Shown: piece by piece, positions 791 to 61,062 of the stretch
Layout: every line of letters begins with the position of its first letter
How positions within the stretch are numbered: the stretch's first letter is position 1
From: Malacoraja senta
Taxonomy: Eukaryota
DNA: 64,000 nucleotides
Direction: 5' to 3'
Assembly: GCA_038087875.1 (NCBI GenBank)
Contig: CM075989.1
Coordinates: 23,314,001-23,378,000 of the forward strand
Notes under the pieces: generated by a model
Databases searched by the model: none
Told to the model about the DNA's origin: nothing
What the model saw: the letters and a program-made list of their open reading frames with translations, nothing else
Translations under genes and position numbers: made by a program

Positions 791-1554
791 TCGAGGTATT
801 GGAAAATCTCTCAGCAAACTAATCTTCACTCACCTATACTGAAGCGTTTTCACGTGGGTGTGAATCTTGGGAAGAACTACTGCTCTTTCTCAAGTAATTA
901 TTTTGACAATTTTAGCAATCATTAATCCTTTGGAAGATTGACACATGATGAACAATCTCTCTCCATGTTCCCATCAATATGCATGGAGTTAAGCTCTCTA
1001 TTAAGTGTTTACACAACCATTAAAACTGTGATTATCAGTAAAATGGCTCATGAATTGGCAATACCACTTCAAGACTGTATTCATCTGCCTCTTTCATTGA
1101 TCTACCATCCACATCCAGCATCCGTTCAGTTTACGTAAAGATTGATCTCATGCATGCACTGAAAGGGAGGGACGGGTTGTACAAATCTTTAGACTTGCCA
1201 ATTGCTTAACTGGAGGATGAGATGAATTGTTTCACCCTATGTGTGGGGAGGAACTGCAGATGCTAGTTTAAACCGAAGATAGGCACATAATGCTGGAGCA
1301 ACTCAGCGGTTCAGGAAGCATGTTTGGAGAGAAGGAATGGGTGACGTTACGGGTCGGATCCCTTCTTCAGACTAGTTTGAAGAAGGGTCTCGACCCGAAA
1401 CATCATCCATTCCTTCTCTCCAGAGATGCTGCCTGTCCCGTTGAGTTACTCCAGCATTTTTTTTCTCACTACTTCCCATGTTCAGAGGTTTGACTGCGTA
1501 GATAAAACAATTGAATCGAATTGTCAGTCTACAGGCTTTACTTTACCAAGACCT

Positions 1555-1822: not shown

Positions 1823-4800
1823 GACACTGTGCCTTGGTGTTTACACTGTGGGCACTTGATAAATGGTTATTTAATCTTGAATGTACATCCCATCATTTTG
1901 AGATCTGGTGCAGGAAACAACTAATAACTTAAAATGTTACTGAGCTAGTTCAGCCTGAGCTATGTTGAAACAGGAGTGATCCATGACCCATATCTATATT
2001 TGAGTGGCATAATATCCATTCATTATATCGCTGTCAATTTTGTTTATTCATTCACAGGATGTAGACATCATAATTACTGACCATCCCTATCTTCCCTGTA
2101 ACATTGTCTTCTTCAGCTGCTGTGTGTAACTTGGCACAACTAAACGCATGAGGGAATTTAAGAAGCAAATCACAATTTGGTTTAGTTTAGAGATATAGCG
2201 TGGGAACAGGCCCTTCATGCTGACCAACAATCATAGAAACATAAAAACATAGAAAATAGGTGCAGGAGGAGGCCATTCGACCCTTCGAGCCAGCACCGCC
2301 ATTCATTGTGATCATGGCTGATCGTCCCCCATCTATAACCCGTGATAGAAACATAGAAAATAGCAATCACTCGTTCACTAATTATATCCTCCACAATTTA
2401 TAGAAGGAACAAAGGAGGTGGAAAGGCGTGGTGGGACCTCCGTGAGGGAGGGAGGAGGGGGGAGGGGGGAACTGGCGCGGGGGGCGAGGGGACGACAACT
2501 TGTAACTATGGCGGCACCCTTTACATGCCCTCGGTACGCAAGCAAAGAATTTCACTGTGACTTGTCACCTGTGACAATAAAGTATTCAATTCAATTCATG
2601 ATCGAACTAGGTACCTGAAACTATAGGATTCAATGTTCATATCCCACTGGGTTGCAAGCTATCCAAGCGGAATATCAGGCGCTGTTCCTCCTGTTTGCAT
2701 GTGGCCTCATTCAGGCAATGGACGAGGCCCAGGAATGAGAAGAGGGGTTGGCAACCGGAAGATCCAGCAGGCCTTGGCAGACCGAGCGCAAGTGTTCAGC
2801 AAAATGCTCACTGAGTATATGCTTGATATCGCCGATGTAAAGGAGGCCTCATCGGAAACAGTACAAACAATAGATTGGTTTCTTAAACCTCCTTGCAAAA
2901 TCAATGGCCCTTGAAAGGCTGCAATTTTAATAATATATATACTTTGCACAAAATCTAGCCTCCATTCCCTGAGCAGCCCTGTTGTAAGGCAGTCTGTCGA
3001 AGCATTGCATACACAAAAGCTGACACCAGGCTCCTGGAAATAATTGAGTTACAATTTTACTGGAAAAGCTAATAAACCAAGGTACCATTAAACCTACTAA
3101 ATGAATTTCCTCCTGGGGAATAATTATTAAGTGGGTACTCCATTTCAGTTATTGGGTAATTAAATGTGGCGTTATTCTGTAAATTAATCCTTACAGAGCG
3201 ACTCATTTTACGTCGTCATGCAGGTACGCTTAGTCAGGCTTCCTGCTGTGATTCACGGCTCCAGTCTGAAGAAGGGTCTCGACCCGAAACATCACCCATT
3301 CCTTCTCTCCAGAGATGCTGCCTGTCCCGCTGAGTTACTCCAGCGTTTTGTGTCTATCTTCGAGTTACTCCCTTTGTTCATCTCTCCCAACCCCCCCCTC
3401 CACCTGTTTCCATCTGCCCAGAATCTCTCATCGTCTGCTTCCACCTACCAGCTACTAGTATCTAGAAACATAGAAAATAGGTGCAGGAGTAGGCCATTCG
3501 GTCCTTCGAGCCATTCAATATGATCATGGCTGATCATCTAAAATCAGTACCCCGTTCCTGCTTTCTCCCCACATCCCTTGATTCTGTTAGCCCCAACAGC
3601 TAAATTAACTCTCTCTTGAAAACTATCCCCCAACCCTACCACTACATGCTGCTAGAAACACACATCACCTCTGTTCCCTCTCAACCCTGAATATTGACCA
3701 TTACTATTATACAAGGGCAAGAGTTCCAGGTATGATTATGATTTTTGGGAACACTATCATAATATAATGGTCCAGAGATGCTGCCTGTCCCACTGAGCCA
3801 CTCTAGCTTTTTGAGTCTATCTATAATGCTAATCAATGTATGCATAACCATGGAGAACGCCAGAGGAACTTTGCACAGTTCTTGTGTATGCATTTTTTAA
3901 TTCTGAATTTTGATTAATAAAAATAAATGTTACTTTTTGTTGATTGACCAAACCGATCATGAACCGGTCTGTGGAATTCTCTGCCTCAGAGGGCGGTGGA
4001 GGCCAGATGCTTTCAAGAGAGAGCTAGATAGGGCTCTTAAAAATAGCAGAGTCAGGGGATATAGGGAGAAGGCAGGAACGGGGTACTGATTGGGGATGAT
4101 CAGCCATGATCACATTGAATGGCGGTGCTGGCTCGAAGGGCCAAATGGCCTACTCCTGCACCTATTGTCTATTGTCTATATGATAGACACAAAATGCTGG
4201 AGCAACTCAGCGGGACAGGCAGCATCTCTGGAGAGAAGGAATGGGTGATGTTTTGGATCGAGACCCTTCTTCAGACTGAGACCTTCTTTCTACAACATTA
4301 TCATGACGTGCACATGGATAGTGTTATCGGAATCAAATAATGAGACCTCTGCCTTCCAGCGATTTGAAGCTCAATACAACTGTGAGCTTTGCAGCTTGTG
4401 CTTTTCTGTCATCCCAGCTGTGTGTAACTGGCATTGCAGCAGGTCCTGTAATTAGATGTTAAGCCTCGGAGCTCAAAACTCGGCACAGCAGAAGTCTGCA
4501 ACTCACCAACTCACCTGGGGCTGTGGGCCATGGATGACTATTGAAGCTTTTACAACCCAGATTGACAGATTGTTGCTGGAAAAAACACAAAGGGACAAAG
4601 AACAAAGACAAGAGAAACAGGAGCTGGTGATGAGGTTAACTGTGATCTGAATGAAACATAGGGCAGACCTGAGGATCATCTCCTGTTCCCGATACTCCTG
4701 CATTAGACTGCTGGCAGGTTGTGTCAATATTCAGGAGATGCTTCAGCGCTCCTAGTTATACACACACTCCCCGACGTACGCAACAGCCGACTTGCGTAAA

Positions 4801-6505
4801 CCCGCACTTACGCAAACGATTCTGTGCTCAGTCCCTCGTGCAGCCAAGGCAGTTTGTAAATCCCACAACACTGTACGATCACTCAGCTTTACACCGGAAA
4901 CAAGCCGGCAATGGCGGCCCTGCTTACCCAGAAGGCCGCGGGGCCCAGAAGGTGCCCTGGACGCAGCTTCAGGCGGTTTCCTCTGAGACGGTTAATGCTT
5001 CCATTGACGGACATAAAGTGCTGCAGCAACTCAGCGGCCCAGGCAGCATCTCTGGAGAGAAGGAATGGGTGACATTTCAGGTCGAGACCCTTCTTCAGAT
5101 TCAGTCTGAAGAAGGGCCTCGACCCGAAACGTCACCCATTCCTTCACTCCACAGATGCTGCCTGTCCCGCTGAGTTACTCCAGCTTTTTAAGTCTATCTT
5201 TGGTTTAAACCAGCATCTGCAGTTCCTTTCCGACACATAAGTCTTGTGTAAGTCAGGGGGTGCCTGTCCAATGAATGATGAGGCCTACTCCAGTGAGTTG
5301 ACAGCCATATCTACTTAAGACTTTTTTAAACAAAACTCATGGTTTCGGAGAGAAGGAACACATTCTATTTTTGCTACATTGCCTAAGGTTTATATAGATG
5401 CTGTCAAAAGCATAAAATATGCTCCCAGTTTGAATTCACAAACTGCACTGTTGGCTTTTTCCATTGTTCAATAAACTTGTAAAGATTACATTTTCTGGAA
5501 TGGAATAATGGGCGAGTTTTAAAAGCTGTTACAATCAACCAGAGGTTGAGGACATGGAAGAACTAACCACACATTCCATCGTCAAGTCTCGCTTCATGTA
5601 CAAAAACATCAATTCTGCAGCGCTGGAGCTGCCATTTAGGTAGAGTGGGGGTGGTAATTGGACATTTATTGCTGACACTAATCTTACACGGCACCACCTG
5701 CTCCCGTTCAAAGCAACATCCGTCTGACATGGCACTCAGTGAGTGGGAATGTGCAGAAAGGAACTGCAGGTGCTGGTTGTATATCGAAGATAGACACAAA
5801 ACGCTGGAGTAACTCAGCGGGACAGGCATCATCTCTGGAGAGAAGGAATGGGTGACGTTTCGGGTCGAGACCCTTCTTCAGACCCAGTGAGTCAGTCAGT
5901 TTAGTTTATTGTCAGGTGTACCTCGAGGTACAGTGAAAAGCTTTTGTTGCGTGCTACCCAGTCAGCAGAAAGACAGTAAATGATCACAATTGAGCCATTC
6001 ACAGTGTACAGTGTATTTACAGTGTATTACAGTACATTTACATCACCTATTCATAAATAGACACAGAGTGCTGGAGTAACTCAGTGGGTCAGGCAGCATC
6101 TCTGGAGAAAAAGGATGGGTGACGTTCCCTTTCTACTCATCGTCTATCCATGCTCTCCAGAGATGCTGCCTGACCCACTGAGTTAGGCAGCAGAAGGGTC
6201 TCGGCCCGAAACGTTGCCTATTTCCTTCGCTCCATAGATGCTGCTGCACCCGCTGAGTTTCTCCAGCACTTTTGTCTACCTTCGATTTTCCAGCATCTGC
6301 AGTTCCTTCTTAAACAACCTGCTGCCTGACCCGCTGAGTTACTCCAGCACTCTTGTCTCTGCACAATCTGTGTTAACTTGGTTTGAGCAGAATAACTTTG
6401 AAAAATTGAATACTTTATTGTCGCATGTGACAGGACACAGTGAGATTCTTTGCTTGTGTACCCAATGTATACAAATAGCATCTGCCTACGGCGCTGACAA
6501 AGTAA

Positions 6506-6929
6506 AGAGCCTGTCCCACGGGCATGCGACTCAATGCGGCAAGCGCGACCTAACCGCAAGCGGGGGCCGCGCGGAGGTCGAGTGATCCCCGTACAGGGCC
6601 GGTCCCACCAGCATGCGGCTGCATGCGGCAAGCGCTACCAAATCGGAAGCGGGGGCCGCGCGGAGGTCAAGTGCCGTCAAGACGGTGCGTACGGCGGCGA
6701 GGCGGTGCGCACGGCCTCGATGCAGCAGGCCGTTGCCGCATGGAATTTTTGAACAGTGTCAGTTTTTCGGAGCCCCGCGCGATGTCGGGACCAACTCCGC
6801 ACAACTCCATGCGGCTCCCGCGATCGAAGTGGGACTGGCCCCGCGACTTCGGCGCGGCCCCCGCACGGCACCCGCTTGCAGTTAGGTCGCGCTTGCCGCA
6901 TGGAGTCGCATGCCCGTGGGACAGGCCCT
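6506..6929. mobile_element. PIF/Harbinger-type MITE
   Basis: Long terminal inverted repeats AGAGCCTGTCCCACGGGCATGCGACTC... and ...GAGTCGCATGCCCGTGGGACAGGCCCT, flanked by TAA on both sides (6503-6505, 6930-6932). It is nested in an older repeat. Confidence 0.85.
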
Positions 6930-8399
6930 TAACAAAGCACGCCGGCTTCTCCTTTGTTCTCCTCCCCATTACCCCCCCACACCCCGCGGGTCCACCATTG
7001 TCCATTGTTCTCCCCCCCCCTCCCACGGTGGTCCCCCACGCTCTCATCGACCACCGGCCGCGGTTCTACCTGCGAGGCTCGGGTAAAACAAATAAGTGAA
7101 CAATGAAGGTGATCTGGTAGTTTAAACTGCACTCTGCAGGCTGTTATCAGGTCTTACTTTCCTAATTGCAGCCCCATTACAGATAACGTTGCTCCGCAGC
7201 GCTTGTTTTCACCGTCTGCATGGCAGGCTGGCCTAACATTGAAGTGCAGTCACTCGAAGAGTGGAATGCAGAGGTGGAGTGGTGTGCAATAGTGGGGTGA
7301 CCTTGTGTGAACACAGCAAGTAAACAAAACTCCCTGGTTACTCATTAGCGACTGCATTTTGGGAAACTGCAACATAGTGGGGCCGCAAAGTCCAAATATT
7401 CTGTGAGGAAACGGTTGAGTTCAAGAGATATCATAAGCCACAAAAACCAGCAGATGAGTAGTGCAGGAAGGAACTGCAGACGCTGGTTTAAACCAAAGGT
7501 AGCTGGAGTAACTCAGCGGGACAGGCAGCATCTGTGGAGAGAAGGAATGGGTGACGTTTCGGGTCGAGATTCTTCTTCAGATTGGTAGATGAGCAGATGA
7601 GTAGGTTGAGAACTGGCTGGATTAAAATGCCGTCCTCGACCCGAAACGTCACCCATTCCTTCTCTCGACAGATGCTGCCTGTCCCAGAGTTACTCCTCTG
7701 TATCTATCTGGCCTGCTAACACGGAAAGACACAAAGTTGGCTGGAGCAACTCAAGCAGTGTCGCTGGAGAACATGGACAGGTGACATTTTGGCACAGGGC
7801 CTCTCGAATGTCACCTATCCAAGTTGAAGGGTCCTGACCCAAAACGTCACCAATCCACATTCTCCAAGGATGCTGCCTGACCCGCTGTATATTCCTGAGG
7901 GTGTCTTGCGCATCAATGCCAGAGAGCAGATTAAACAATTGGCAGATGCAGGAAGCATCAGAAAGGGCAAGCTCTTGCTCCCATTTTAGCTCTACACCCA
8001 CCTTGCACCAAGTCCGGTTTACGGCAGGACTGTGCAGTTAAAAACAGATCCATTAATTTCAGAGGGCAGTCTGGTAAGTGTTGAAACAGTGAACAACATC
8101 TCTGTAACTTTCAACATCAGTCTTCTGCATTTACCAAGTTGCCTATCAGATTAAAATCATGTTAAAATTGAGCACTTTGTCTATTCCCTCAGGCAGTAGT
8201 TGTACTCCCATGTGCAGAAGTATCTCAGATGTATCGAGTTATGCTGGGACTGGCGTGCCCTGGGTGCAGGGGTGTTTTAAGTCATCTTTACGTTCCACGG
8301 CAGAGTTTCTCTTTCTGGTGTCAGCTATGGGTGACAAACTCCGTTAAACCGGAGTTCAGGTCACTCTCTAGATAACCGAGAACAAAATTCTAGACTAAG

Positions 8400-8700
8400 A
8401 GCGGCACGGTGGCACAGCGGTAGAGTTGCTGCCTCACAGCGCCAGAGACCCAGGTTCGATCCTGACTACGGGTGCTGTCTGTACGCAGTTTGTAAGTTCT
8501 CCCAGTGACCGCGTGGGTTTTCTCCGGGAGCTCCGGTTTCCTATGAGAATCCAAAGATGTACAGGTTTGTAAGTTAATTGGCTTTGGTAAGATTGTAATT
8601 TGTCCCTGGTGTGTGTAAGGATAATGCTAGTTTACAGAGATCGCTGGTCGGCATGGACTTGGTGGGCCGAAGGGCCTGGTTTCTCGCTGTATTTCTAAAG
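8400..8700 (+). mobile_element. tRNA-derived V-SINE (HE1-like), full length
   Basis: Pol III A box TGGCACAGCGG (8410) and B box GGTTCGATCC (8453), central domain 'gtgggttttctccggg..ctccggtttcc', and CR1-like tail 'gggccgaagggcctg...gctgtat'. Confidence 0.88.
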
Positions 8701-9317
8701 TCTCAGAGGTAATTGGCTCCTTGTTTCTACGTGCTCTTAGTGAAGCCTCCTTTCCTAGTGACTATTCTCCAGCAAAACTCCCAGACACAAGATGCAGGAG
8801 AAATAACTTGACAGAGAGATAATAACAAAACAAAGAGAAAATCTTGAAGCAAATTGAATTTGCATGGGTGGATCAGTTACCATGACACCCACGCACCAAA
8901 GGTTCCTCCCAACTTTCACATTAGGTTATATATTTCCTGGTTGGAACCTGCATGAACGGAAGCATTGGAAAAAGCTTCAATAGACAATACAATAGACAAT
9001 AGGTGCAGGAGTAGGTCATTCGGCCCTTCGAGCCAGCACCGCCATTCAATGTGCCATCCCCAATCAGTACCCCGTTCCTGCCTTCTCCCCATATCCCCTG
9101 ACTCCGCTATTTTTAAGAGCCCTATCTAGCTCTCTCTTGAAAGCATCCAGAGAACGTGCCTCCACCGCCCTCTGAGGCAGAGAATTCCAGACTCACCACT
9201 CTCTGTGAAAAAAAGTGTTTCCTCATCTCCGTTCTAAATGGCTTACTCCTTATTCTTAAACTATGGCCCCTGGTTCTCAATATAACAATTATATAAATGG
9301 TCCTCAAAACATTCATT

Positions 9318-17288: not shown

Positions 17289-18748
17289 TTTTTAAAATAT
17301 TTTAATTTTATTAGAAGTACAATTGTATACAATCATATTTTCATAATACATTTTATGTACAGCTTCTTATTTTTTTATTATAATAAAGAAGAAAAGAAAA
17401 AGAAATTAGATAATGAAGTATAGAAAAACGTGAGATATATAGTGTGTGGAGAAGAAAAATAGAGAGTGAAAAAGGAAAGTTAAAGAGTAGAAAATAGGAA
17501 AAAGAGAATAAAAGAAAAAAAGGAAGAAAAAGAAAAAAGAAGTAAGGAGATCTTATTTATAATCTTGACCATCCCTCGCTTAGTCACAAGTTGCACCATA
17601 TGATTCCAAAAAGACGACAAATGGAGACCAACTCGTTGTGAATTGGTCAAATTTATCTATTAGGAGGAATCGCATTTCCTCAAGATGTGCAGTGTCCAAC
17701 ATACTTGCAATCCACATTTTGAACGTTGGTATTGGTGTATTTTTCCAAAAGTATTAATTTTTTTGCTATTATTAAACCATAATTAAAAAATAATTTTTGA
17801 GATGGATTCAATTTATTCCCATCTTCCATTACCCCAAATATAATCAATTCATTATTAGGTTCCATTTTTATCTTAAATAATTTTGTGAATATTTCGAAAA
17901 TATCACTCCAAAATCTATAACGTTTTATACAGGAAACAAAAGAGTGTGTTATAGTTGCATCTTGGATTAAACATTTATCACAAGTGGGGGATATATTTGG
18001 GTAACATTTATTTAATCTTGTTTTTGAGTAATACAATCTATGTAAAATTTTAAATTGAATTAGATTGTCTTGCATTAATCGAACATTTGTGAATATATGT
18101 CAAATACTTTTCCCATGTAACCTTCGTAATTTTTATCATTAATTCCCGTTCCCACTCTTCTCTAATTACCTCAGTCGCAGGTAAATCTATATTTAAAATA
18201 CTATTATATAAATATGATATTAATTTTTGTGTATCAGCTTTAATATTCATTACTTCTTCCAATAAATCAGGAATTATTTTTTGATATCCCTGTATGTATG
18301 TCTTCAAGAAATTGCAAATCTGAAAATATTTAAAATAATGATTGTTTTTCAGTTTAAATTTTAATTGTAATTGTTGAAATGATAGTAAATCTCCCATTTC
18401 ATACAAGTCCCCGATCCTTTTAATTCCTAAACTTTCCCATTGAATATATATTTTGTCCATCATAGATGGTTTAAATAAAGGATTATTCGCTATCGGTGTT
18501 AAAAATGATAGGTTTCTTAATTTTAAGGATAATTTTATTTGTTTCCATATTCTTATTGTATCTTGTATAATTGGGTTCTTCTTATATATTGTATTGTTCA
18601 TTTTTTTCGGGGAGAAGAGGATCGTTCCTATATTATAAGGATAACAATCCTCTTTCTCCATTTTTATCCATTCTGTCTGTTGGGTTGAACTATCCAACCA
18701 GTAAATTATATTCTTAATATGTATTGCCCAATAGTAATACAGAAAATT
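17289..18748 (-). mobile_element. 5'-truncated L1-clade LINE, 3' part of ORF2 plus 3' UTR
   Basis: ORFs 18050-18751 and 17680-18075 (NFLYYYWAIHIKN, QFKILHRLYYSK, CDKC...HSFVSC) are clearly homologous to the 51616-52977 protein. The minus strand ends 'cttctaataaaa' plus an A-rich tail, like the 53 kb copy. Confidence 0.9.
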
Positions 18749-19878
18749 CAATCATGGCTGATCTATCTTTCCCTTTCAACCCCATTCCCCTGCCTTCTCC
18801 CCATAACCCCCGACACCCGTACTACTCAAGAATCCATCCAACTGTATCTCAAAGCACAATAAATTAATACAATAGACAATAGGTGCAGGAGTAGGCCATT
18901 CGGCCCTTCAAGCCAGCACCACCATTCAATATGATCATGGCTGATCATCCAAAATCAGTACCCCGTTCCTGCTTTTTCCCTATATCCCTTGATTCTGTTA
19001 GCCCCAAGAGCTTTATCTAACTCTCTCTTGAAAACATCCAGTGAATTGGCCTCCACTGCCTTCTGTGGCAGAGAAGTCACAACTCTCTGGGTGAAAAAGT
19101 TTTTCCTCATCTCAGTCCTAAATAGCTGACCCGTTATTCTTAAACTGTGACTGGGTTCTGGACTCACCCAACATGGTGAATAATTTTCCTGCATCTAGCC
19201 TGTCCAATCCCTTAAGAATTTTATATGTTTCTATGAGACCCATCTCATTCTTCTAAATTCCAGTGAATACAAGCCCAGTCAACCCATTCTTTGACCAGAT
19301 AATCTGTGAAGGGGCGATCGCTGGTCGGCATGGACTATGTGGGCCAAAGGGCCTGTTTCCATGCTGTATCTCGACACTAAACACGGTGCTATTTTTTTAC
19401 TCGTGGACATTTTTCATCAGGCCGAAAAAACGTCCCGACTTACCCAATGCCCCGAGTACCTACGGCTGGCATAACGAGCCGCCATGATATATCTACAAAC
19501 TCCTACGGCCTCCTACCGACTCGTTACAGACATTCTCCGAGTTTGAATCAAGGGGAAAACTCTGGAGAATTCGTGAATAACTCGTGAAAGTGGGACCGGC
19601 CCTTAACACTATCCTACACACACACACACACGAGGGACAATTTACAATTTTATCAAAGCCAATCAACCTACAAACCTGTACGTCTTTGGAATGTGGGAGG
19701 AAACCACAGCACCCGGGGAAAACCCATGTGGTCACAAGGAGAACGTACAAACTCTGCACAGACAGCACCCGTAGTCAGGATCGAACCCGGGTCTCTGACA
19801 CCATGAGGCAGCAACTCTACCGATGTGACATTGTGGTAATCCGCACTATTCCTCAGTGCCTGAAGAAGGGTCCCGACC

Positions 19879-20073
19879 TGAAACGTCACCTATCCATGTT
19901 CTCCACAGATGCTGCCTGACCCGCTGAGTTACTCCAGCACTCAGTGAAATGTCACCTATCCATGTTCTCCAGAGATGCTGCCTGACCCGCTGAGTTACTC
20001 CAGCACTCAGTGAAATGTCACCTATCCATGTTCTCCAGAGATGCTGCCTGACCCGCTGAGTTACTCCAGCACT
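19879..20073 (+). repeat. Three tandem 66-bp units within a Penelope-derived repeat
   Basis: The unit tgaaa(c/t)gtcacctatccatgttctcc...ccagcactcag starts at 19879, 19945 and 20011. Confidence 0.9.
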
Positions 20074-21372
20074 CTGTGTCTTTTCTTTTAAACACAACCA
20101 CAAAAGTCTCCTGTTGCATTCTTAGTCCTTATCGGAGGTCTCCAGGTGTGACACGTACACAACTCGTTCAGCTAAATTCTATGAAACATGTTGATTTCTG
20201 TTCAGAGCAATAAACTGTGCCAAAGTTGAATATCTATTTATCTAAAACTCACTGCTCTGCCTCTGCTCTGCGTTCATTATGTTCTATCTGTTCTGGGCCA
20301 AATCTCTGTACAGACTTGCTCGGAGAAACACTTGGTGTTTGATGCACCTTCACTCAATCACCTCACCTCTTATCACCCTACACCGAGTCTGCCGACAATT
20401 AGTCACCGAGCTTTGCACGCAGGCTTGGTGGTGAAATCACTGCCCCCCCACCCCACCCCACCCCACCCCCTCCATCTCGTCAGCCCCAGGTCACAGCGAA
20501 TTTCCTATTAAACATCAGCTGGAATGCAGCATCCAAAACAGAGGGGGAGACAGATTAAAAAATATCCTCCAAAAGCAGAATAAGTTAGTTTGATTTTTTT
20601 TTTAACGACAGTATAGAATCTTCCTTCACCTCTGACGCAATGGTACAATATTTTTTAAAATAGTTTAGTTTGGAGATACAGCCCGGAAACAGGCCCTTCG
20701 GCCCAACGAGTCTGCGCCGTCCAGCGATCACCATGCACTAGCACTATCCTACACACACCAGGGGCAATTTTCAATTTTACCGAAGTCAAATTAACCTGCA
20801 AACCTGCACGTCTTTGAAGTGTGGGAGGAAACCGGAGTTCCCTGAGAAAACCCACACGGGTCACGGGGAGAACGTACAAACTCCGTAAAGGCAGCACCCA
20901 TGGTCAGGATCGAACATGGGTCTCTACTGCTGAGCCACCGTGCCTTCCCCACTATTAGCAATAATGAGCGTAACAACAAGCGATAATAAATATCATCCAA
21001 TAGTCAATTCAATTGATAACACGACTGAAAATTACCATGGGTACTAAAGAGTGTAAAGACATTTTGGCCTCAGCAGATGCTGCGTAATCTGTTGTGTATT
21101 TACCACAGGCACAAAGTACTGGAGTAACTCAGCGGGACAGGCAGCATCTCTGGAGAGAAGGAATGGGTGACGTTTCTGGGTCGAGAGCCTACTCCAGACT
21201 GAACAAGGTCTTAACCAGAAACGTCACCCATTCCTTCTCTCCAGAGATGCTGTCTGTCCTGCCTGAGTTACTCCAGCCACTTTGTGTCTATCTTCAGTTT
21301 AAACCAGCATCTGCAGTTCCTTCCTACATACTCGACACATCACCTTTGACAGAAGCAAGTGGGCACACTTAC

Positions 21373-21686: not shown

Positions 21687-24193
21687 CTGCAACAGAAACA
21701 GCAAGCACGGAGAGGTTAGAAAACAGCTCGGTTACAGGAGCAACGTGATCATGTGTTGAAAAACAAAGACTGCTTGAACATTTCTTAACCTGCTCACAAG
21801 TTGGCTGGGTGTCTGATAGCAGCCACATGTTACAGTGTGCACTCTCCTCTATCAAAACCATTGCCACCTCACCGAACCCTACAGCAGGCTCCCTGCCCGC
21901 ACAACCAACACCGCTCCCTGCCTGCTGCAGCAGAACTCCCTCAGACCAGGTTAATCTTGCATTGACTACCTCCCCTGGAGTAACTCAGCGGGTCAGGCAG
22001 CATCTGTGGAGAACATGGATAGGTGACGTTTCACAGAGTGCTGGAGTAACTCAGCGGGTCAGGCAGCATCTCTGGAGAACATGGATGATGGGTGACGATT
22101 TGGGTTGGGATTCTTCTTCAGATGTTCAGTCAATCCTGTTTGAGTTTTAAAGTTAACCTGAGCATTGAAAACTTCACAAGACCAACAGAACATTATCTTG
22201 CACGAAACATTATTCTCTTTATCATGTATCTGTACACTGTAGAAGGCTCAATTGTAATCAGGTATAGCCTTTCGCTGACTGGTTAGCACGCAATAAAAGC
22301 TTTTCACCGTACCACAGTAAACTGGAACAATAAACTAAACTAAACTAAAGAAGACAGACACAAAAAGCTGGAGTAACTCAGCGGGGCAGGCAGCATCTCC
22401 AGCTTTTTGTGTCTATCTTCACTTTAAACCAGCATCTGCCAGTGCCTTCCTAAACTAAAGAGCGTGGGCAGTGTTAGGTTTAACTAGAGTTGCCGTTTAT
22501 TTCTTATGAGGTGAAGTGATTCAGTTCAATGCGGTTTCCACAGAAGCTTTGTTTAGTAAAGACACATACGGGCATAAAAATGGAAAACAATTGTTCTGAA
22601 AACAGGCAAGGTTCAAAAGAGAAATTTAAAGTTGAGGTAGATTTGACCAAATATAGAATTTTTGAATTACCTTGAAATTAATCAAAGTTTAGTTAAAGGC
22701 TCATCCCTAATCCTCTCCCTCCTCCAGAAACACACTCTTTAAAAGTTGTCTCCTTCATCTGTAACATTTAGTTGGATTACACTCAAGTGAAATAATCTGA
22801 AACATATTTCAATTTCAAAACCAATTTAGAGAATTCCTCATTTTTCTGGATTCATTCCAATAAAGTTACTTTAAGTGTAGGAAGGAACTGCAGATGCTGG
22901 TTTACACCAAAGAGAGATACAAAATGCTGGAGTGACATAGCGGGTCAGGCAGCATCTCTGGAGGAAAGGAATAGGTAACGTTTCGGGTCAAGACCCTTCT
23001 TCAGTTGCGTCCTACTCCCTCTCCTGACATCAGTCTGAAGAAGTGTCTCGCCCCGAAACGTCGCTAATTCCTTCTCTCCAGAGATGCTGCCCGGCCCGCT
23101 GAGTTACTCCAGCATTTTGTGCCTATCTATCTAAAGTTACTTTATGTTTGACAATTTTATTAAAACAGAATACACGAGAAATGATCATGAAAAAGCCTAG
23201 ACACAATGTACTGAAGTAACTCAGCGGGTCAGGCAGCATCTCTGGAGAACACGAATAGGTGGTGTTTCGGGTCGGGACCCTTTTTCAGACACTTGTACAT
23301 AAGACAAATAATGTCAGTTCAGTGGTAGGATGATTCAGTTGCCTGATAACAGCTGGGAAGAATCATCCTACCACAACCAGAGAGCAGTGCTGAACTACTA
23401 TCTACCTCTTTGGTGACCCTCGGACTACCCTTGATCGGGCTTTACTGGCTTTCCTTGCACTAAACATTATTCCCATATCATGTATCTATCTATACACTGT
23501 AAATGGATTGATTGTAATCATGTATTGTCTTTCCGCTGACTAATTAGCATGCCACAAAAAGCTTTTCACTGTACCTCGCTACACATGACAATAAACTAAA
23601 CTGAAGAGACCTTTCCTCCCCTGTCCATTGTGTGGGGATTTGCAGCAGTGCAACAATAAGCTGGCGGTAGATACAAAATGGTGGCGTACCTCAGCGGGAC
23701 AGACACCATCTCTGGAGAGAAGGAATGGGTGACGTTTCGGGTCGAGACCTTTCTTCAGACTTCTTCATTGTTTCCTACATCTCTCTCTCTCTCTCTCTCT
23801 TGCTCTCTCTATATTGTTTACAGCGCAATATGTTTGCAATAGATCTCTGCAACTTGACTGCAGTTTGAACTGATGTTCTTATCTGTGTTACCATCAGTTC
23901 ATACATATTGCCTTTCATGATAAATAATTGTTGACAGTCACGGGCCTGGAAACCAGAGCTTGTGCGGATAGTGAGTCGCAAAAGCCTCACAAAAAATATA
24001 GTATATCGCTCAACACCACACAGTGGCTTCGGTCAGAGGAAGATAAGTCGCTGACCTTAACAACAAGATGTAGCAGTTTGGATTAACTCGGGGACACTCT
24101 GGAAAAACACAATAATTATACTGCTGAGGATAAAGCTGAGCTAACAATGTTAGGAGTAAGTCAAATGCATGTTGAAGTAGTCAATATATATCA

Positions 24194-38257: not shown

Positions 38258-39171
38258 TTACTCCTCCTTGGGCTTCTGAAAATTACAGAAACAAACCCCA
38301 ATCGGTCATAAGGTCTTAGGAATACGAGTAGAATTAGGCCATTCGACCCATCTAGTCTACCCAGCCATTCAATCATGGCTTATCTATCTCTTCCTCCTAA
38401 CCCCATTCTCCTGCCTTCTCCCCATACCTGTACTAATCAAGAATCTATCTATCTCTGTCTAAAAAATATCCACTGACTTGGCCTCCACAGCGCAGAGGAA
38501 GAACAAAGTGGGAAGAGACAGAGACTTTAAGACTTTTGCCTCCATCACAGTGAGGAGGTGCCTGGTGAACTCACTGTGGTGGATGTTAATTTGTGTTTAT
38601 TGTGTGTTTTGGTATTTATTATTATATGTATGACTGCAGGCAATGAAATTTCGTTCAGACCGAAAGGTCTGAATGACAAATAAAGGAATCTCTAATCTCT
38701 CTAATCTCTAATCTCCACAGATTCACCACCCTCTGACTAAATAAATTCCTCCTCATCTCCTTTCTAAAAGAACGTCCTTTAATTCTGAGGCTGCGACCTC
38801 TAGTCCTAGACTCTCCCACTGGTGGAAACATCCTCTCTGGTCAACAAACCCAAACAAACCAAAGATGGGTCTCGACCCGAAACATCACCCATTCCTTCTA
38901 TCCAGAGATGCTGCCTGTCCCACTGAGTTACTCCAGCATTTTGTGTCTATTTCCAATCAGCCAACATCCTCTCCCTCCCCCCATCCCCCCACACACCAGA
39001 CCCCCAAAAGTAAGCTGCAAAGTGAAAGCCCCTGCTTGTGTGTCCGACTTCATCACACACACACAACCAAACCGCATTTAAACTGAGAGGTGCGGTGGAA
39101 ACTCGAAGATTAAAGTAGAGGTATTGCCTCTTGAATCTGAGCAAGTTCATCCACAGACTCCAAACTGTGGG

Positions 39172-39530
39172 GCTAAACGCAAATTGGAGGAACAACATCT
39201 CATATTTCGCTTGGGCCACTTGGTACGTGGCTATGTGGTATGAAGATTGATTTCTCTCACTTCAGGAAGCCTCGGCATTCCCTCTCTCTCTATCCCTCGG
39301 CATTCCCTCTCTCTCTATCCCTCCCCCACCCAAGTCGCACCAGCTTCTCGTTTTCACCCAACAAACAGCTAACAGTGGCCTGTTTCCTTTATCATCGTTA
39401 CTTTTTTACATATCTTTCATTCATTGTTCTTTATCTCTCGACACCAACGTCTATATCTCTAATTTCCCTTATCCCTAACCAGTCTGAAGAAGGGTCTCGA
39501 CCCGAAACATCACCCAATCCTTCTCTCCAC
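39172..39530 (+). mobile_element. Penelope-like element 3' fragment: end of GIY-YIG endonuclease, pyrimidine-rich UTR and hammerhead-like motif
   Basis: Translates AKRKLEEQHLIFRLGHL...GMKIDFSHF, which resembles the E-x-x-W/H-I-x-x-L-x(3)-P-x-G-L/M-N C-terminus of PLE GIY-YIG domains. It runs contiguously into 'agtctgaagaagggtctcgacccgaaac' at 39481. Confidence 0.75.
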
Positions 39531-42500
39531 AGGGTGTGGTGGAGACACCCCTCAAAATAAGGGTAGGGATTCCACGCCAGTGGGTCACATGAGTGGCAAG
39601 GGTGTGGGGTAAAATTATGATTTGGGGATGGAGTTTTGTAAGGATCATGTATTGTATATATTTATTTCTCGAATAAAGTATATTTTGGAAAAAAAAAAAA
39701 AACTTCCTTCTCTCCAGCGGTGCTGCCTGTCCCGCTGAGTTACTCCAGCGTTTTTGTGTCACAACAATAACCGCATTATTTACACAGCAGGCAACAAACT
39801 CAAATCAAAGTTCTTAATATCTTTGCATGCCATTTATAAAGCTCGCCCTCAATAGTTGGGGTCCAGAGTTACACACAGCTGTCTAACCCTAGTGTGGAAC
39901 GAGTGTACATGTTTGGCGTAGGGAGGAACTACAGATGCTGGTTTACACTGAAGATAGACACAAAATGACCCTTCCTCTACTGATCTACAGAATTCAAAGC
40001 TAAACACAATGCAGCGATGAATACAGACAGGGCTTTAGAAAAAACACTCTTTGTGATGAACAGACCTCCTAAGGCAGTACACACCACAACATAATTAACA
40101 TCCAGCATTTCCGTAAGCTTTGACTTAATGGGACGCAGTTAAAATCTGTGCTCTTTGCTTCTGTCAAATTCCAGAGCAATACAAAGAGACAAGGTCAGTC
40201 TAACTTAGTAACGGTAACTTACCAATTTAGCAGTGAATCTGCAAGAATGAATCATCTGTCCTCACACATCGGCTGAGTAGCAACAATGTTAGCAGCAACA
40301 CACTGCACAACACAACCTACAAGTCCCAAATAAATCTCCATTATACAAACTGATTCACAATCAGATGGGCACAGCTTCAAACTCTTGCTGAAGTGTTTTC
40401 GCTGGTGACGGACGATTCCTAAACAGTACAACGTGAGTAGGAAGGAACTGCAGATGCTGGTTTAAATCTAAGGTAGACACAAAATGCTGGAGTAACTCAG
40501 CGGGACAGGCAGCATCTCTGGAGAGAAGGAATGGGTGACGTTTCGGGTCGAGACCCTTCTTCAGACTTCATGTACAACGTGAGAGCAAGTAAAACAAACA
40601 GACTGCATTTGTGCCTCTAATGATCCATTAGTTGATGCATATACAATTGTTGTGTCAACATTTACAAGACTCCACAGATGATACAGTCTATTTCTGTCCA
40701 AGCAGAGGAAGTCTTGGCTGTTTCTTCCATGAGTGAACGTACCATTTAGTGAAAGGGCTGGAAAAGGTTCTAGATCTCGTTATAAATTAAAGGCCACATA
40801 TGAACAGGCTTTGTACTGTTCCTACGGACCTGGTGGGTAGGGGTTGGTGTGTTTAAAGGGAATTACTTCTCAAAATCACGGTTATCGCCATTCAATCTTA
40901 GCACAAGGCGGAACAATCAAGCCTATGAACAGATTCAGACATAAATCAAAGCTTCACCTGAATACTTACATAATTTATGAGTCTTTCTTGAGAAACGGCG
41001 GGATAAATGTCACAGGAGAGGAGCCGAGGGCTACAATCACTGCAGTTTCTTCTCAGCTGCTTTTGAAACAACACCACGCTTCTCCCCACCCGTCAGCCAA
41101 CTAACGCACCACAAGTGAAAACCGACCAGCAAACACCAGCATTTCATGGGCTGGGTCTGAAGGAATGTTTACTACATACATAGGGTTGAAGTGTTTGTTT
41201 AATCTTTCCAACAGCAGCCAAAGAACACACCCAGTGCTTTTAACTTTAATTGGAGCAGCAAACTGAGAGGAATAAACTGGAAAGTAATTCTCTTTACAGC
41301 CCCCCCTTTCATCCCGACCAATAAAACCATTAACTCGGCATGGATATGGCAGCGCTGGCGTGCCTGTGTAGAGACCTGAACTATTGAAGGCAGACATAAA
41401 ATGCATGAGTAACACAGTGGGACAGGCAGCATCTCTGGTCTGGAGAGAAGGAATGGGTCGAGACCTTTCTTCAGACTGAGAATCAGTGGGAAATGAAATG
41501 AGAGATATAGGCAGTGATGTAGAGAGATATAGAACAAATGAATGAGAGATATGCAAAAAAGTAATGATGATAAAGGAAAATAAAGGAACTATTGATCTGG
41601 AGATCTTCCTTTCTCCCCCCCCCCCCCCCCCCCTCAGCATCTCAGGAGAGAAGGAATGGGTGATGTTTCGGGTTGAGGCCCTTCTTCAGACCTCAACTCA
41701 TGCAGTTTAGTTTAGTCTTCGTTCATTGTCACGTGTCCCGCACTCCAAAGACGTACAGGTTTGTGGGTTAGTTGGCTTGGTGTATGTGTAAATTGTCCCT
41801 AGTGTGTGTGGGATAGTGTTAGTGCGCGGGGATCGCTGGACGGTGCGGACTCGATGGGCCGAAGGGCCTGTTTCCGCGCTGTATCTTTAAACATGCCGTG
41901 TGATCTAATCTCAAGGCGGCTCCAGACACCAACAGCAATGCGAACAACTCTTAATTGCTCTGTGAAATGGTCTCGCAAGTCCCTCAGTTCATGGGATAGC
42001 CACAGCAACGCAAACAACTTGTGATAGAATAAAGAGCATCCTCAAACTGGATGTAACACTGAGCAGTTATATTAGTGTTCATAGTTTGGCCGAGCTGATC
42101 AGTGATGAGGACTGTTTTAAAAGAAGAACAGCAGAATGTGGTCTGAAGAGAGAATAGCAGAGTTTAAATCCTCCTATGGAGAAATGAATAGCAGAGTTTT
42201 AATCCTCTTATGGGTGACGTTTCGGGTTGAGACCCTTCTTAAGACCCGAAACGTCACCCATTCCTTTTCTCCTGAGATGCTGCCTGTCACGCTGAGTTAC
42301 TCCAGCTTTATGCGTCTATCTTCGGTTTAAACCAGCATCTGCAGTTCCTTCCTCCACATTAATCCCTCCTGTGCTTTGGGCTCATGCACCAGTTAGAATG
42401 ATTACATTTAATAATGATTAATAACCCAGATCAGGACAAAGATCACAAAGATAGACACAAAGTGCTGGAGTAACTCAGCAGGACAGGCAGCATCTCTGGA

Positions 42501-46750: not shown

Positions 46751-47782
46751 ATGTTAGAATTTAATCTGCACCCATACATCCCAGATATGTGGTAGAAATT
46801 GTTTGAAGTGGAGGGTGGTCCTGGATGGGGATATTTTAATTGTTGTAAAGTGGGACAGATTGGTTAGGAATGTGGAATAAACAGGCATTATAATGTGAGT
46901 GCTATCACAGATCTGAAGTGGAATGTGGGAACGACTCCAGTGGATGTTTTGGTTGGCGGGGGGACATTTGCATATTTGCCTCTGCCTAACCAATAATTTC
47001 CGGCATTCTTTTGTTTTAAAGCATGAAGCTTAAAAGTCGCAAAGTGCGTATCTTGTACTTTCAGCTGCGCTGCTCCTTGGCTAACCCTCGAGAGGGAGCC
47101 ATGTCCTGAACTGGTTTCATGTGTGAATAGGTTTTAACATCTTCTCACCAAAGGGTAGTGTTAGTGTGTGGGGATCGCTGGTCGGTGTGGACTCGGTGGG
47201 CCGAAGGGCCGTTTCCACGCTGTATCTCTAAAACGAAATTAAAAAACGACTTTACAGTTTTTTCTAAGAGTTCTGGTCTCAGAATGTGCTACACAAACCT
47301 GGTTTAGGTTTCAGTTTTAGATATGCAGCGTAAAAACAGGCCCTTCAGCCCACTGAGTTCATGCCAACTATCGATCAACCATACACTAGTTCTATGTCCT
47401 ACACACACACGGGGCAAGTTACAGGAGCCAATTAACCTACAAACCTGCTTGCCTTCAGGTGCATATATGGTCACAATCTTTGAATAATGGACTCGGATAG
47501 ATTCACTCTGACCCAGCCTGAGATTCATGTACATAAGCAAGTTTCCGTCTGTGTATATGGACCTGCTCTCAGTCTGATGTTACATACAGACACAAGGAAC
47601 TGCAGATGCTGGTTTACACAAAAAGACACAAAATTGTTGGAGTAACGCAGGCAGCTTCTCTGGAGGACACGGATATGTCGGGACCCTTCTTCAGACTGAT
47701 TGTGTGTGGGGGTGGGGGGGGGGGGGTTGAGAGAGGGAAAGAAAGGTGGGAGAGAGAAGAGGCTGGACAAAGCATGCAATAT

Positions 47783-47998
47783 GTGTAGGAAGGAACTGCA
47801 GATGCTGGTTTAAACAGAAGAGAGAGACAAAACGCAGGAGTAACTCAGCGGGACAGGCAGCATCTCTGGAGAGAAGGAATGGGTGACGTTTCGGGTCGAG
47901 ACCCTTCTTCAGACTGGTCAGGGATAAGGGAAATGAGAGATATAGCCGATGATGTAGAGTGATAAAGAACAATGAATGGAAGATATGCGAAAAAGCAG
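47783..47998 (-). mobile_element. Penelope-derived terminal repeat (pseudo-LTR) with intact minimal hammerhead-like core at 47885-47912; dozens of related copies across the window
   Basis: The minus strand reads CTGAAGA-A-GGGTCTCGACCC-GAAA-CG-TC. Its upstream UTR matches the 39400-39480 region of the GIY-YIG-linked copy. Confidence 0.72.
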
Positions 47999-48811
47999 AG
48001 ATCTGGAGATAAGAATATGAACATTTCTTCGGCACCCGCATGTTTTTCCCCAAAATGTTATCAGTTTTAGAATTCCTTTCAGCAGACAAGCTTCTTTATC
48101 CATTACTTGCACTACTGAGTTAACTGAAGTGCTTTGTATTTTCAACACAATCAGCTAAATTAATCAGCCACGATGTGGTCTAACCTGGGGCTACATGTTG
48201 AATGTGAGGCAAGGAAGAAGGGTCTCGACCCCGAAACGTCACCCATTCCTTCTCTCCAGAGATGCTGCCTGTCCCGCTGAGTTACTCCAGCTTTTTGTGG
48301 CTACATTTTGTATCCTCTGCTACAGACTAGGTAGCAGAGAGAAAATTAGCCCGGTTGATTCAAGAGAATGGCTTTGTTCCATCGAATAAGCATCAATAGG
48401 TTTAACACCGGAAAATAGTCCAAACTATATTAAATACCATTTTTTGTAAAGATGTTTGTTTATGTACATTGTGATTATATATTCCTAACGTCATCATATA
48501 CAAACTTATGAGAGGTACAGGGTGACATGTTTGGCCACAGCAGAGCTGTAAACAACTCGAGAAAATAGATCGGTGTAGGGTCAGGGCTAGGAGATGTGGA
48601 GTAAACTTGGAGGCTTGAAGAAAGCACTTTTTAGTTGAGTTTCGAGATACAGCACAGAAACAGGCCTTTCGCCCACCGGGTCCGCGCCGATCGGCGATCC
48701 CCGCACATTAACACTACCCTAGTCCCACTGGGACAATTTTTACATTTACACCAAGCCAATAAACCTGCAAACCTACACGTCTTTGGAGTGTGGGAGGAAA
48801 CCGAAGATCTC

Positions 48812-50269: not shown

Positions 50270-53200
50270 TGAGATATACTCAGACCAAGTTATAAAACTA
50301 TGTCAAGATACAAAACAATTAAACTTTGAATTTGGTGATAAACCACAAAAACTATTAGCGCGTCAACTTCGTAAACTGGACGGGGAAAAAACAATTTACA
50401 AAATTAGATCAGACAAGGGAGAAACATTAACACTGCCTAAAGATATTAATGATAGATTTTTACAATACTATCAAAAACTGTACTCATCTAAAACGACAGA
50501 ACAATCAGCAGGAATGGAAACATTTCTACAGATTTAGATCAGAAAGAGAGAGAATCACTAGATGCAGAAATTATGGTAAAAGACATCGAAGAGTCAATTA
50601 GATCTTTAAAAAATGGAAAGGCCGCAGGTCCTGATGGTCTAAGCTCTGAATTTTATTTAAAAAATTACGATCTGATTTCTCCACGCCTACAGACACTCTA
50701 CAAATACGCTTACACTCAACAGAAACTCCCAGAAACTCTAAATGAATCTACAATCATACTTATACCAAAAACGGATAAGGATCCTGAAGACCCAGGTTCA
50801 TATAGAGCAATAGCTCTCTTAAATACTGATCAGAAAATATTAACCAAAATCCTATCTCATAGATTGAGCTTAGTGATTAACAAATTAATACACCCGACCA
50901 AACAGGTTTTATTCCAAAACGTTACTTATTTTATAATTTGAGAAGACTATTCAATATTATATATACAAATAGAATTCCTAATGCAGATCTAGCAATTATT
51001 TCGTTAGATGCTGAAAAAGCATTTGACCAGGTAGAATGGTCATATTTATTTTCGGTAATGGAAAAATTTCAACTGGGAGAGAAGTACTGTACATGGGTTA
51101 AATTGTTATACTCTAATCCAACAGCTAGAATATTAACAAACCAAATGTTATCAGCTAAATTTAATCTTTGTAGAGGTTGTAGACAAGGGTGCTCACTATC
51201 CCCACTATTATTTGCTCTTGCAATTGAACCATTAGCAGAAAGCGTTAGAACCCATCTAGGAATACACGGGTACAACACTAGAGATACAAGGAATAAAATT
51301 TCCTTATATGCAGATGATGTACTAATATATATTACAAAGTTAGAAACTAGTATTCCAAATCTATTAAATCTAATAACTCAATTTGGTCAGTTCTCAGGAT
51401 ATAGAATTAACTGGAATAAAAGTGAAATTATGCCAATAACAAAATTCAATTTAAATACATTACAACAATCCCCTTTTAAAATAATTAAAGATAAACTTAA
51501 ATATTTAGGAATCTACGTAACTAAGACATATACCTCTTTATTTAAACTAAATTTTCCATCCTTACTTAATTAATTACACAAGAATATTCAGTACTGGAAA
51601 ACACTTCCCATTTCAATGCTTGGTAGAATTAATGCTATAAAAATGACCTTCTTACCGCAACTACTGTACCTATTTCAATTAATTCCGATATATATCCCCA
51701 AAAACCTTTTCAAAAAAGTTGATTCCATTGTTACAAGCTTTATTTGGGATTATAAGAATCATAGAATAAGTAAAAAACATTTATGTAAGTCAAAGAGCAA
51801 CGGAGATTTGGCCTTGCCAAATTTCTTATTTTATTTTTGGGCAGTCCATATTAAAAACATGAATTTCTGGCTGGAAGAAATGGATCAACATCCAGATTGG
51901 TTAAGGATGGAAAAGGAAGACTGTTTACCTTTTGAAATTGGTTCGATTATATTTGCTCCCACAAAACTGCATAAAAAAACCTATAAGGAAAACCCTATAA
52001 TACATAGTGGAATACGAATTTGGAAACAATTAAAAAAAGCTTTAAAACTGAACAATATACCACTATGTCTTCCCATTGTAAATAATCCTTTATTCAAGCC
52101 ATCCATACTGGATAAAGGTTTCATACAATGGAAAAATTATGGAATTAAAAAGATTGGACATCTTTATAGGAAAGGCATTTTTCTGTCATTTCAAGAGTTA
52201 CAACAGAATCATGGACTACACTCAAATAATTTTTTCAGATATCTACAAATTAGAGATTATGTTAAATCTAATACACAAGTTTATAGGACTAGGGAACCAG
52301 AAATTCTTGATGAATGTTTGAATAAGCATCCTAACACTGAAAAATTAATAGCTTATATTTATAACACCCTCTTAGACAACGAGGTACCACCGATGGAACT
52401 ATATAGACACACATGGGAAAATGAGTTAGGTCATCCTATAACGAAAGACATTTGGGACGAAAGTTTACAACATATACATCAATGCTCGTTAAATGCCAGA
52501 CATGCTTTAATACAATTTAAAGTCTTACACAGATTACATTACTCCAAAATAAAACTAAATAGAATCTTCCCACATATTTCTCCTATCTGTGATAAATGCC
52601 TGCATCTAGAGGCCAATTTAACACATACTTTTGCAAATTGTACAAAAATTAAAAATTTCTGGACTGATATTTTTGAAATAATTTCTGAAGTTGTTAATAC
52701 TAAATTGGATCCAGACTCAAAATTAATAATACTTGGGATATCAGCACAAAGTTTAACACTCACAACAAGCATAGGAAACTTCCTTGACTACAGTATAATA
52801 ACTGGGAAAAAATTAATATTAAAATTTTGGAAAGGCCCTATAACCCCCACAATTAAAATGTGGATTGTGGAAATGTCAGAGACCCTACATCTAAAAAGAA
52901 TTAGACTTGTCTTAATGGACAAACAAGAACCTTTTGTTAAAATATGGGCTCCATTCATTAACTATTTGAAGGGATAGATTGGCCCAGCACGAAAACCCAA
53001 CTGAAGCTTGAACTCAGGATTAGATGTAAAATTATATTTCATAACCTACGAACTTATCTCCAATGACGTATTATAAGTAGTTCATTCCACCTCTTTTTTT
53101 TTTTGATATTTGTAATTCTTTTTTCTTTCTATCTCTCTTTTTCTATCTATATTAAAAAAAAACACTAGAAGCAGAATTAATTGACAATTGACAATTTAAA

Positions 53201-60175: not shown

Positions 60176-60837
60176 TTACAGTCTGAAGAAGGGTCTCAAC
60201 CCGAAACGTCACCCATTCCTTCTCTCCAGAGATGCTGCCTGTCCCGCTGAGTTACTCCAGCACTTTGTGTCTACCAGCATCTGCAGTTCCTTCCTACATA
60301 GTCAAAGCAATGTCCTCTGTCTCTCCAAAGCCGAACAAGCACAGATCTCGTGAACAATTGCCTTTGTGATGCTTTTGCTAAGTGAAAATGAACCTAATTT
60401 GAAAACAAAGGTGATAGTTGTCATTTGTCAGATGCTTGTAAATAGGCTGGCAATTAGCAGGCTAATTATCCACTTGTCTTCCCAATGCATATTGCAAGTG
60501 CAAATTAAAGTGCTGGGTGTGAGAATGTGCTCACTGTTGTTATGGAGGGAATGCGGCAGTAAGTTTGTCTGCAGCAACATCCCATAACTATTCATTTAAC
60601 AAATGACCAAATAATCTGTGTTATTGATGTCATCCGATCCAGATATCAGGGGATCATCACCTCAAGTCTTGACGTAATCCCATCGGATCTTTTACATCCA
60701 AATTAAATTTATAAACACTGAACTCAAATTCTCAAATGAATAATCTTTATTGTCTTGGACCAATATTAATCCAGAAAACTAAATTTTCCAAAGGTAGATA
60801 CAAAATGCTGGAGTAACTCTGCAGATCAGGCAACTTG

Positions 60838-61062
60838 TGCGGGAAGGAACTGCAGATGCTGGTTTAAACCGAAGATAGACACAAAAGCTGGAGTAACTCA
60901 GCGGGACAGGCAGCATCTCTGGAGAGAAGGAATGGGTGATGTTTCAGGTTGAGACCTTTCTTCAGACTAAGTCAGAAGAAGGGCCCCGACCCGAAACGTC
61001 ACCCATTCCTTCTCTCCAGAGATGCTGCCTGCCCCGCTGAGTTACTCCAGCTTTTTGTGTCT
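60838..61062. repeat. Inverted (palindromic) dimer of the Penelope-derived repeat; also at about 1240-1460, 5010-5237, 14876-15090 and 22876-23128
   Basis: '...gagaaggaatgggtgatgtttc...cttcagact' is followed immediately by its reverse complement 'agtcagaagaaggg...gaaacgtcacccattccttctc...'; arms are about 90-100 bp. Confidence 0.85.

Follow-up and report, generated by a model that had tools for sequence, protein, structure and literature searches.

The window analysed here, a 64,000-nucleotide stretch of the Malacoraja senta genome (contig CM075989.1, positions 23,314,001 to 23,378,000), carries at 47885..47912 on the minus strand a minimal type-I hammerhead motif, one of five found fully intact among the 37 copies scored in the window. 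A sequence-only reading had placed a ribozyme-like core here, and the 28-nt motif was confirmed on the minus strand from 47912 to 47885, where the 5' box of the catalytic core, an extra A, a 4-bp stem II with a 4-nt loop, the 3' core box, an ACGU palindrome and C17 follow one another. Counting from C3 of the hammerhead core as +1 (position 47912 for the focal copy), cleavage is predicted between +28 and +29, namely between 47885 and 47884. The 5' edge of the motif is a YCAGT box (47913..47917, minus strand), which provides the 5' strand of a 2-bp stem I, forms the start zone of most short copies, and is the likely transcription start. Upstream of it, 47918..47997 (minus strand) is a piece of the 3' UTR of a Penelope-like element (PLE), 47864-47995 matching 39532-39401 at 90%, and the focal copy hence belongs to the minority of copies reaching upstream of the motif. 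Downstream, 47781..47884 (minus strand) constitutes the remainder of the terminal repeat (pLTR) with a long tail, which ends near +132, the tails of other copies ending near +95. Two further copies lie close by, namely a decayed same-strand neighbour without the 3' core box (47593..47703, minus strand), which cannot act as a dimer partner, and a short-tail copy oriented away from the focal copy (48214..48312, plus strand).

The repeat bearing this motif was, as had been claimed from the letters alone, the most abundant one in the window, with a self-blast depth of up to 65 compared with about 22 for the second family, and a profile search detected 67 copies (34 minus, 33 plus). The core pattern matched 24 times against 5.6 expected, a number reached in 0 of 100 shuffles. 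All the other cores listed in the sequence-only reading were also present. The identical minus-strand cores at 5881 and 40564 sit in intact solo stubs at 5746..5883 and 40434..40567 (both minus strand), which are bounded by target-site duplications of 8 and 12 bp, respectively. Among the plus-strand cores, that at 60183 is fully intact, that at 5106 has a C-A mismatch within stem II, and those at 39484 and 56119 (CUGAUGA) have lost the ACGU palindrome. Head-to-head pairs occupy, with both arms, 1238..1473 (one long and one short tail, the arms being joined at the AGT start), 5009..5243 and 60836..61062. At 39167..39532 (plus strand) lies a 5'-truncated PLE end consisting of a GIY-YIG C-terminus, a 3' UTR and the motif, in accordance with the earlier observation of a GIY-YIG C-terminus at 39172 upstream of the motif. 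The window also contains short arrays of 66-nt tandem units, which span +21..+86 of the repeat and lack the 5' core box (19860-20093 and 21977-22122), and fragments of LINE-type reverse transcriptase elements (50881-51570 and 17356-18205).

The minimal type-I hammerhead anatomy proposed for the repeat was borne out, and it matches features described for the minimal PLE hammerheads (PMC4209133). To compare subfamilies, the 493 of 1,135 hits that span 0..+86 were clustered on 12 positions outside the motif, which gave six clusters of at least 8 members. The catalytic core, the extra base after A9, the G10.1-C11.1 pair and the palindromic 15.2-16.2 positions were found in the focal copy and in all six subfamily majorities. 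Helix I, which typically comprises 4-5 bp in minimal hammerheads, was 2 bp in every subfamily, as the sequence-only reading had stated for stem I. No Rfam hammerhead family matched in the window at E values up to 1.

The segment 39167-39532 matches loci whose upstream sequence encodes a GIY-YIG domain, a zinc-finger linker and a reverse transcriptase (RT). In 30 loci picked by the RT-linker region, the motif was located downstream of the endonuclease in 19, and one of these 30 loci retains a 438-aa open frame with RT and GIY-YIG. In another 30 loci picked by the N-terminal part of the ORF, the motif with its tail directly precedes the ORF in four, and in two more it precedes the ORF but is separated from it by an insertion. 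The core lies 176-190 nt past the ORF stop and 162-166 nt ahead of the ORF ATG (four copies measured in each case). Since the motif thus follows the GIY-YIG stop and also precedes the ORF start, the repeat represents the pLTR of the element. The same terminal repeat on both sides of the ORF, and RT followed by a C-terminal GIY-YIG domain in one ORF, are the arrangement of endonuclease-bearing (EN+) PLEs. Pfam detected RVT_1 (E 1e-5) and GIY-YIG (E 8e-4), both with scores below the curated cut-offs, and a protein atlas gave 0.97 hits to HTH_animal/RVT_1/GIY-YIG clusters. These RT- and GIY-YIG-bearing loci with the motif corroborate the PLE origin that had been suggested for the repeat. In the in-frame copies, the linker between RT and endonuclease reads C-X4-C-X2-C, and the Neptune clade is defined by a CX2-5CxxC linker at this site (PMC8557442), which points to a Neptune-type element, a placement derived from the linker motif and not from a tree.

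No intact full-length element was found, every copy seen being old and broken, and at 20 loci of divergent PLE families in this genome the sequence ends short of their own 3' ends. A metagenome scan yielded two relatives among 169 candidates, one with the full motif and the other with the core but a non-standard 3' side. The distant metagenome PLE L151, whose endonuclease is 50% identical, has the same core, extra A and palindrome, but its 5-bp stem II differs and its stem I is longer and is formed in the predicted fold. Its minimal hammerhead (L151:705-750) lies about 100 nt past the endonuclease stop of this PLE in the metagenome contig. Separately, another repeat family (L063, L065, L067, L071, L079, L086 and L088) carries a piece of the N-terminal region of the PLE ORF, fused to unrelated upstream sequence and a simple repeat. 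The literature listings contained no description of this PLE family for skate, shark or Chondrichthyes; Repbase and Dfam lay outside their scope, and bioRxiv supplements may contain it. The minimal PLE hammerhead has been known since 2014; in the present case a reduced version of it sits in the pLTR of a Neptune-type PLE.

The high copy number claimed for the family was verified in 36 evenly chosen 10-kb stretches, which held 99 copies (43 in 20 stretches from large contigs and 56 in 16 from smaller ones); scaled to 1.94 Gb, this corresponds to roughly 4-5 x 10^5 copies in the genome. The window itself is three to five times denser in copies than these stretches. Copy ends were mapped in two sets, the first covering 1.06 Mb (the 64-kb window together with 100 further stretches, many of them picked from its vicinity), in which 655 hits reach +60, and the second covering 647 kb with 369 hits, whose selection enriched it for long copies. 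The 5' ends fell at -12..+3 in 286 of the 655 and 146 of the 369 hits, and upstream of -20 in 63 and 74. Only 10/655 and 9/369 lay at +26..+32, and thus there was no peak of copy starts at the predicted cut site in either set. A further start peak at +21 (60 hits in the 1.06-Mb sample) is in the window owed to the 66-nt tandem units. The 3' ends were bimodal, near +95 and +132, so that the two tail ends are about 35-40 nt apart. Most copies are therefore stubs of 100-135 nt, which outnumber longer copies about four to one (286 vs 63), and the same copy edges recurred in contigs of eight other sequencing runs from several organisms.

Target-site duplications of 9-16 bp were identified at 35 of 170 solo copies, compared with 0-3 after shuffling, indicating that solo copies are separate insertions with target DNA at their 5' side. 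Splicing of host exons into the acceptor-like box was rejected as a source of the 5' flanks, which proved to be target DNA in four clear empty-site cases (11 of 141 units were colinear). A head-to-head partner accompanies 137 of the 368 motif-bearing copies, and a same-strand neighbour within 400 nt only 31. One long and one short tail were combined in 72 of 96 head-to-head pairs (48 expected, p 5e-7), and in 72 of the 96 both arms belong to one subfamily, the divergence between the arms (0.13) being smaller than that between shuffled arms (0.20). An inverted pLTR with a one-sided tail of 30-40 bp is reported for insertions of EN+ Neptune PLEs (PMC8557442, PMC3846280), and the pairs show the same inverted pLTR with a one-sided 30-40-nt tail. 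Of 39 asymmetric pairs, 18 have the longer tail on the arm that is shortened at its 5' end. Fold-back copying, the alternative to two-sided priming, would not give this pattern, although later deletions at the hairpin centre could. Many junctions showed 1-4 nt of microhomology. In many copies the first 6-7 bases of the motif are directly repeated at the copy start, a pattern that slippage at the end of an RNA might produce. Two stub pairs share unrelated 5' flanks (window 22122 with L156:6608, and L120:6853 with L125:9766), which suggests composite units or duplications. In one inverted pair (L241:1385-1875, also L243 and L244), both arms join a donor-like site before the ATG to the acceptor-like motif start, and L248, of a second subfamily, has the same joint once, for which a spliced or circular template or microhomology could account.

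The core was identical in the majorities of all six subfamilies, which varied inside the motif only at two loop positions and at 11.4 (U-A to U-G), 17 (C to U) and 1.1 (U-A to U-G). All of these changes are tolerated ones, which suggests that the motif was under selection in the active parent lineages, although the changes number only five and two-sided ones are absent. Retention of the core across subfamilies (6/6) and in the distant PLE with a different stem II thus agreed with the sequence-only reading, whereas its two further expectations failed: compensatory covariation in stem II was not seen within this genome, where only a one-sided U-A to U-G change occurred, and core substitutions were not depleted among copies (4.4% in the core, 4.3% in the flanks). 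At non-CpG positions of the largest subfamily, 84 of 1,900 core positions and 369 of 8,515 flank positions were changed (p 0.85), and G12 was lost in 46 of 211 copies. The motif in inserted copies is a passenger decaying neutrally; core, stem II, palindrome and stem I were all intact in 79 of 493 copies, and in 5 of 37 in the window. The hammerhead fold was predicted at -3.9 to -4.5 kcal/mol and a competing hairpin at -9.9 to -14.1 kcal/mol; the latter was thus favoured by about 8 kcal/mol (e.g. -12.1 vs -3.9), with a predicted stem I probability below 0.002, and its stability was like that of shuffled sequences (z -0.11). Considering the 2-bp stem I and this preference for the competing hairpin, monomer cleavage of host RNA is unlikely, and cleavage by the motif is predicted to be weak. 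Published minimal motifs showed no monomer cleavage and low dimer cleavage (PMC4209133), and the anole PLE motif is described as cleaving only with the element's protein (PMC11167929); by analogy, the present motif probably cuts only with a partner RNA or the protein of its element.

Taken as a whole, we consider it fairly probable that the repeat is the pLTR and tail of a Neptune-type PLE, and that the short copies stem from internally started reverse transcription on uncleaved RNA up to a likely capped 5' end before the motif. Reverse transcription would start internally at two sites in the tail and proceed on uncleaved RNA to the RNA 5' end just before the hammerhead motif, the YCAGT box being where transcription would begin. 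A 100-135-nt stub would result when priming takes place in the 5' repeat and a longer 5'-truncated copy when it takes place in the 3' repeat, while priming from both sides of a break would give the head-to-head pairs. The fixed 5' edge would most simply be the end of an RNA, and copies begin at about -2 with the whole core, whereas a cut template would give copies beginning at +29, which argues for uncut templates. The start box, which resembles an initiator, is kept across subfamilies with differing upstream UTRs. For the anole PLE protein, reverse transcription is reported to have two internal start sites, by which the tail is defined, and to extend both target strands with uncleaved RNA as the main substrate (PMC11167929), and the two 3' ends found here (+95 and +132) fit these two start sites. 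The more specific proposal, which we hold with evenly divided confidence, is that the several hundred thousand stubs arose as strong-stop copies made up to the capped 5' end of the PLE RNA. They would hence map, in vivo and on a large scale, its transcription start (at the first base of stem I), the two RT starts and two-sided priming, and would show that the ribozyme spares the template of retrotransposition.

An extra G is a frequent result of cap copying, as has been read for L1 and SVA (PMC3287187), and we therefore counted G before the copy start, after dropping 87 of 170 solo copies in the first set and 54 of 96 in the second because of shared, element-like, pyrimidine-rich or decayed flanks. 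G was found in 18 of 33 informative cases of the first set, against 10-11 expected, and in 5 of 14 of the second, against 4.3-4.7 expected, so that the excess of the first set was not replicated; pooled, the counts amounted to 23/47 against 14-16 expected (p 0.006-0.02). The same positions in long copies had G in 3 of 215. In four of four other sequencing runs (1,217-1,859 contigs each), the consensus had G before A(-2) and before G(-1), as the plurality letter only, while the background of this genome favours A and T. An additional G preceding the start, which a capped RNA end would be expected to produce, is accordingly suggestive but not settled. Microhomology blurs the start into a zone of about 6 nt; the box also reads as a splice acceptor, and the stub 5' edge coincides with the base of the predicted hairpin.

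These last properties leave room for readings in which the PLE origin is the same and the edge has another cause. The sharp 5' edge might come from structure, by release of RT or the cDNA at the base of a 0..+48 hairpin or by microhomology joining at the near-palindromic box, with the RNA starting further upstream. Every subfamily is indeed predicted to fold as a long hairpin based at the start zone, and microhomology of 1-4 nt marks many junctions; however, the hairpin is no stabler than shuffles (z -0.11), its register shifts between subfamilies, and an extra G is not predicted, so that we regard this explanation as unlikely. An origin of the edge in splicing appears scarcely credible. Here 0..+162 would be an exon, with an acceptor at 0 and a donor at the ORF start, and splicing or back-splicing would drop the ORF and supply the templates. 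The predicted junction occurs in both arms of one insertion and also in a second subfamily (L248), and the intron of D. virilis Penelope is described as ending at helix I (PMC4209133). Nevertheless, only two clear loci exist genome-wide, at two mismatches the junction gave 10 matches against 11 for the control, the joints among the first 100 of 390 matches listed fell at three other offsets, the donor being absent from them, and the 5' flanks in the four empty-site cases are target DNA.

The sequence-only reading had regarded the short unit as a non-autonomous family, which would be transcribed from inserted stubs and mobilised in trans. The fourfold excess of stubs (286 vs 63) and the two stub pairs with common unrelated 5' flanks could be so explained, PLE cis sequences are reportedly able to mobilise in trans (PMC3846280), and retrozymes have been proposed as pLTR-derived (bioRxiv 10.64898/2026.07.22.740005). 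Against this, stubs and ORF-linked copies of the main subfamily do not differ, endonuclease-linked copies exist in the second subfamily as well, any upstream flank is shared in only 19 of 181 solos (mostly 3' UTRs of other subfamilies), and the stubs end before the ORF start, which, judging from the anole protein, would be needed for binding. A separate family is thus unsupported, the copies looking like stubs of ORF-bearing elements in two subfamilies with ORF-linked copies, and we deem it quite improbable. Very improbable, in turn, is that the copies act as dimeric ribozymes cutting host pre-mRNAs such as a semaphorin transcript, even though 79 of 493 copies retain core, stem II, palindrome and stem I and the anole PLE motif cleaves with protein help (PMC11167929). 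The predicted hammerhead fold (-3.9 vs -12.1 kcal/mol, stem I probability <0.002), neutral decay with G12 lost in 46/211 and the absence of strand bias speak against it, as does the scarcity of same-strand neighbours within 400 nt (31/368), 137 copies having instead an antisense partner able to pair. The placement of the copies in a putative semaphorin gene stood in part: a semaphorin-4-like exon (L125:4907-5155; best solved-structure match semaphorin-4D, E 2e-15) is encoded on the minus strand some 5 kb to the left of the window, whereas neither its upstream exons nor, inside the 64-kb window, any Sema exon could be located. The suggested bearing on its pre-mRNA fell away, and an effect of the focal copy has no support, given the lack of strand bias (34 minus, 33 plus), the neutral decay, and the absence of an intact same-strand partner nearby, the neighbour at 47593-47703 being broken.

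Should the motif cut, its intact copies in introns, which number in the tens of thousands, would be of consequence to host transcripts, but the evidence points against cutting. The copies are fossils, and the value of the family is mechanistic, concerning how PLEs insert and what their hammerhead does, both of which are described as still debated (PMC8557442, PMC11167929). As a natural record of insertion ends the family is very large, and it yields the testable prediction of capped RNA from the motif edge and an uncut template. If true, the strong-stop reading would also account for the scattering of minimal hammerheads across animal genomes as single motifs. In the literature searched, 'Penelope-like', 'pLTR' and 'strong-stop' were not found treated together; the additions made here are the lack of a cut-site peak, the tail-asymmetry statistic and the extra-G test.

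Compared with known systems, the motif resembles the minimal hammerheads of metazoan PLE pLTRs described in PMC4209133, being of type I with the catalytic core, an extra base between 9 and 10.1, G10.1-C11.1 and palindromic 15.2-16.2 but no helix III, and occurring mostly as single dispersed motifs from truncated PLEs with some opposite-strand pairs. Helix I of those motifs is typically 4-5 bp and 2 bp in D. virilis, as in the present family, and helix II is 4 bp here and 7-8 bp in Schistosoma; the estimated 4-5 x 10^5 copies compare with about 4,000-9,000 motifs in coelacanth and Xenopus obtained by a stricter search, and cartilaginous fish are not among the taxa named in the available portion of that paper (PMC4209133). 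The non-LTR retrozymes likewise carry a type I hammerhead, placed in a short ORF-less unit related to pLTRs, as described in bioRxiv 10.64898/2026.07.22.740005, but form tandem arrays with the motif in consecutive units, whereas the copies here are solo or inverted, same-strand neighbours amounting to 31/368 and the 66-nt units of the window lacking the 5' core box, so that tandem units each with a complete hammerhead were not observed. The insertions correspond to those reported for EN+ Neptune PLEs (PMC8557442, PMC3846280) in several respects: they are truncated at the 5' end, form partial tandems and head-to-head inverted copies, carry the tail on one arm, show variable target-site duplications and microhomology, and have a zinc-finger linker ahead of GIY-YIG. 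They differ in their most frequent product, which here is nothing more than a 100-135-nt stub whose 5' edge is fixed at the motif. With the green anole Poseidon element PAc, as described in PMC11167929, the family would share two internal RT starts that set the tail, extension of both target strands and uncleaved RNA as substrate; the two differ in the position of the ORF, which in PAc begins within stem II and includes the tail, whereas here the ATG is located about 165 nt after the core, beyond the tail.
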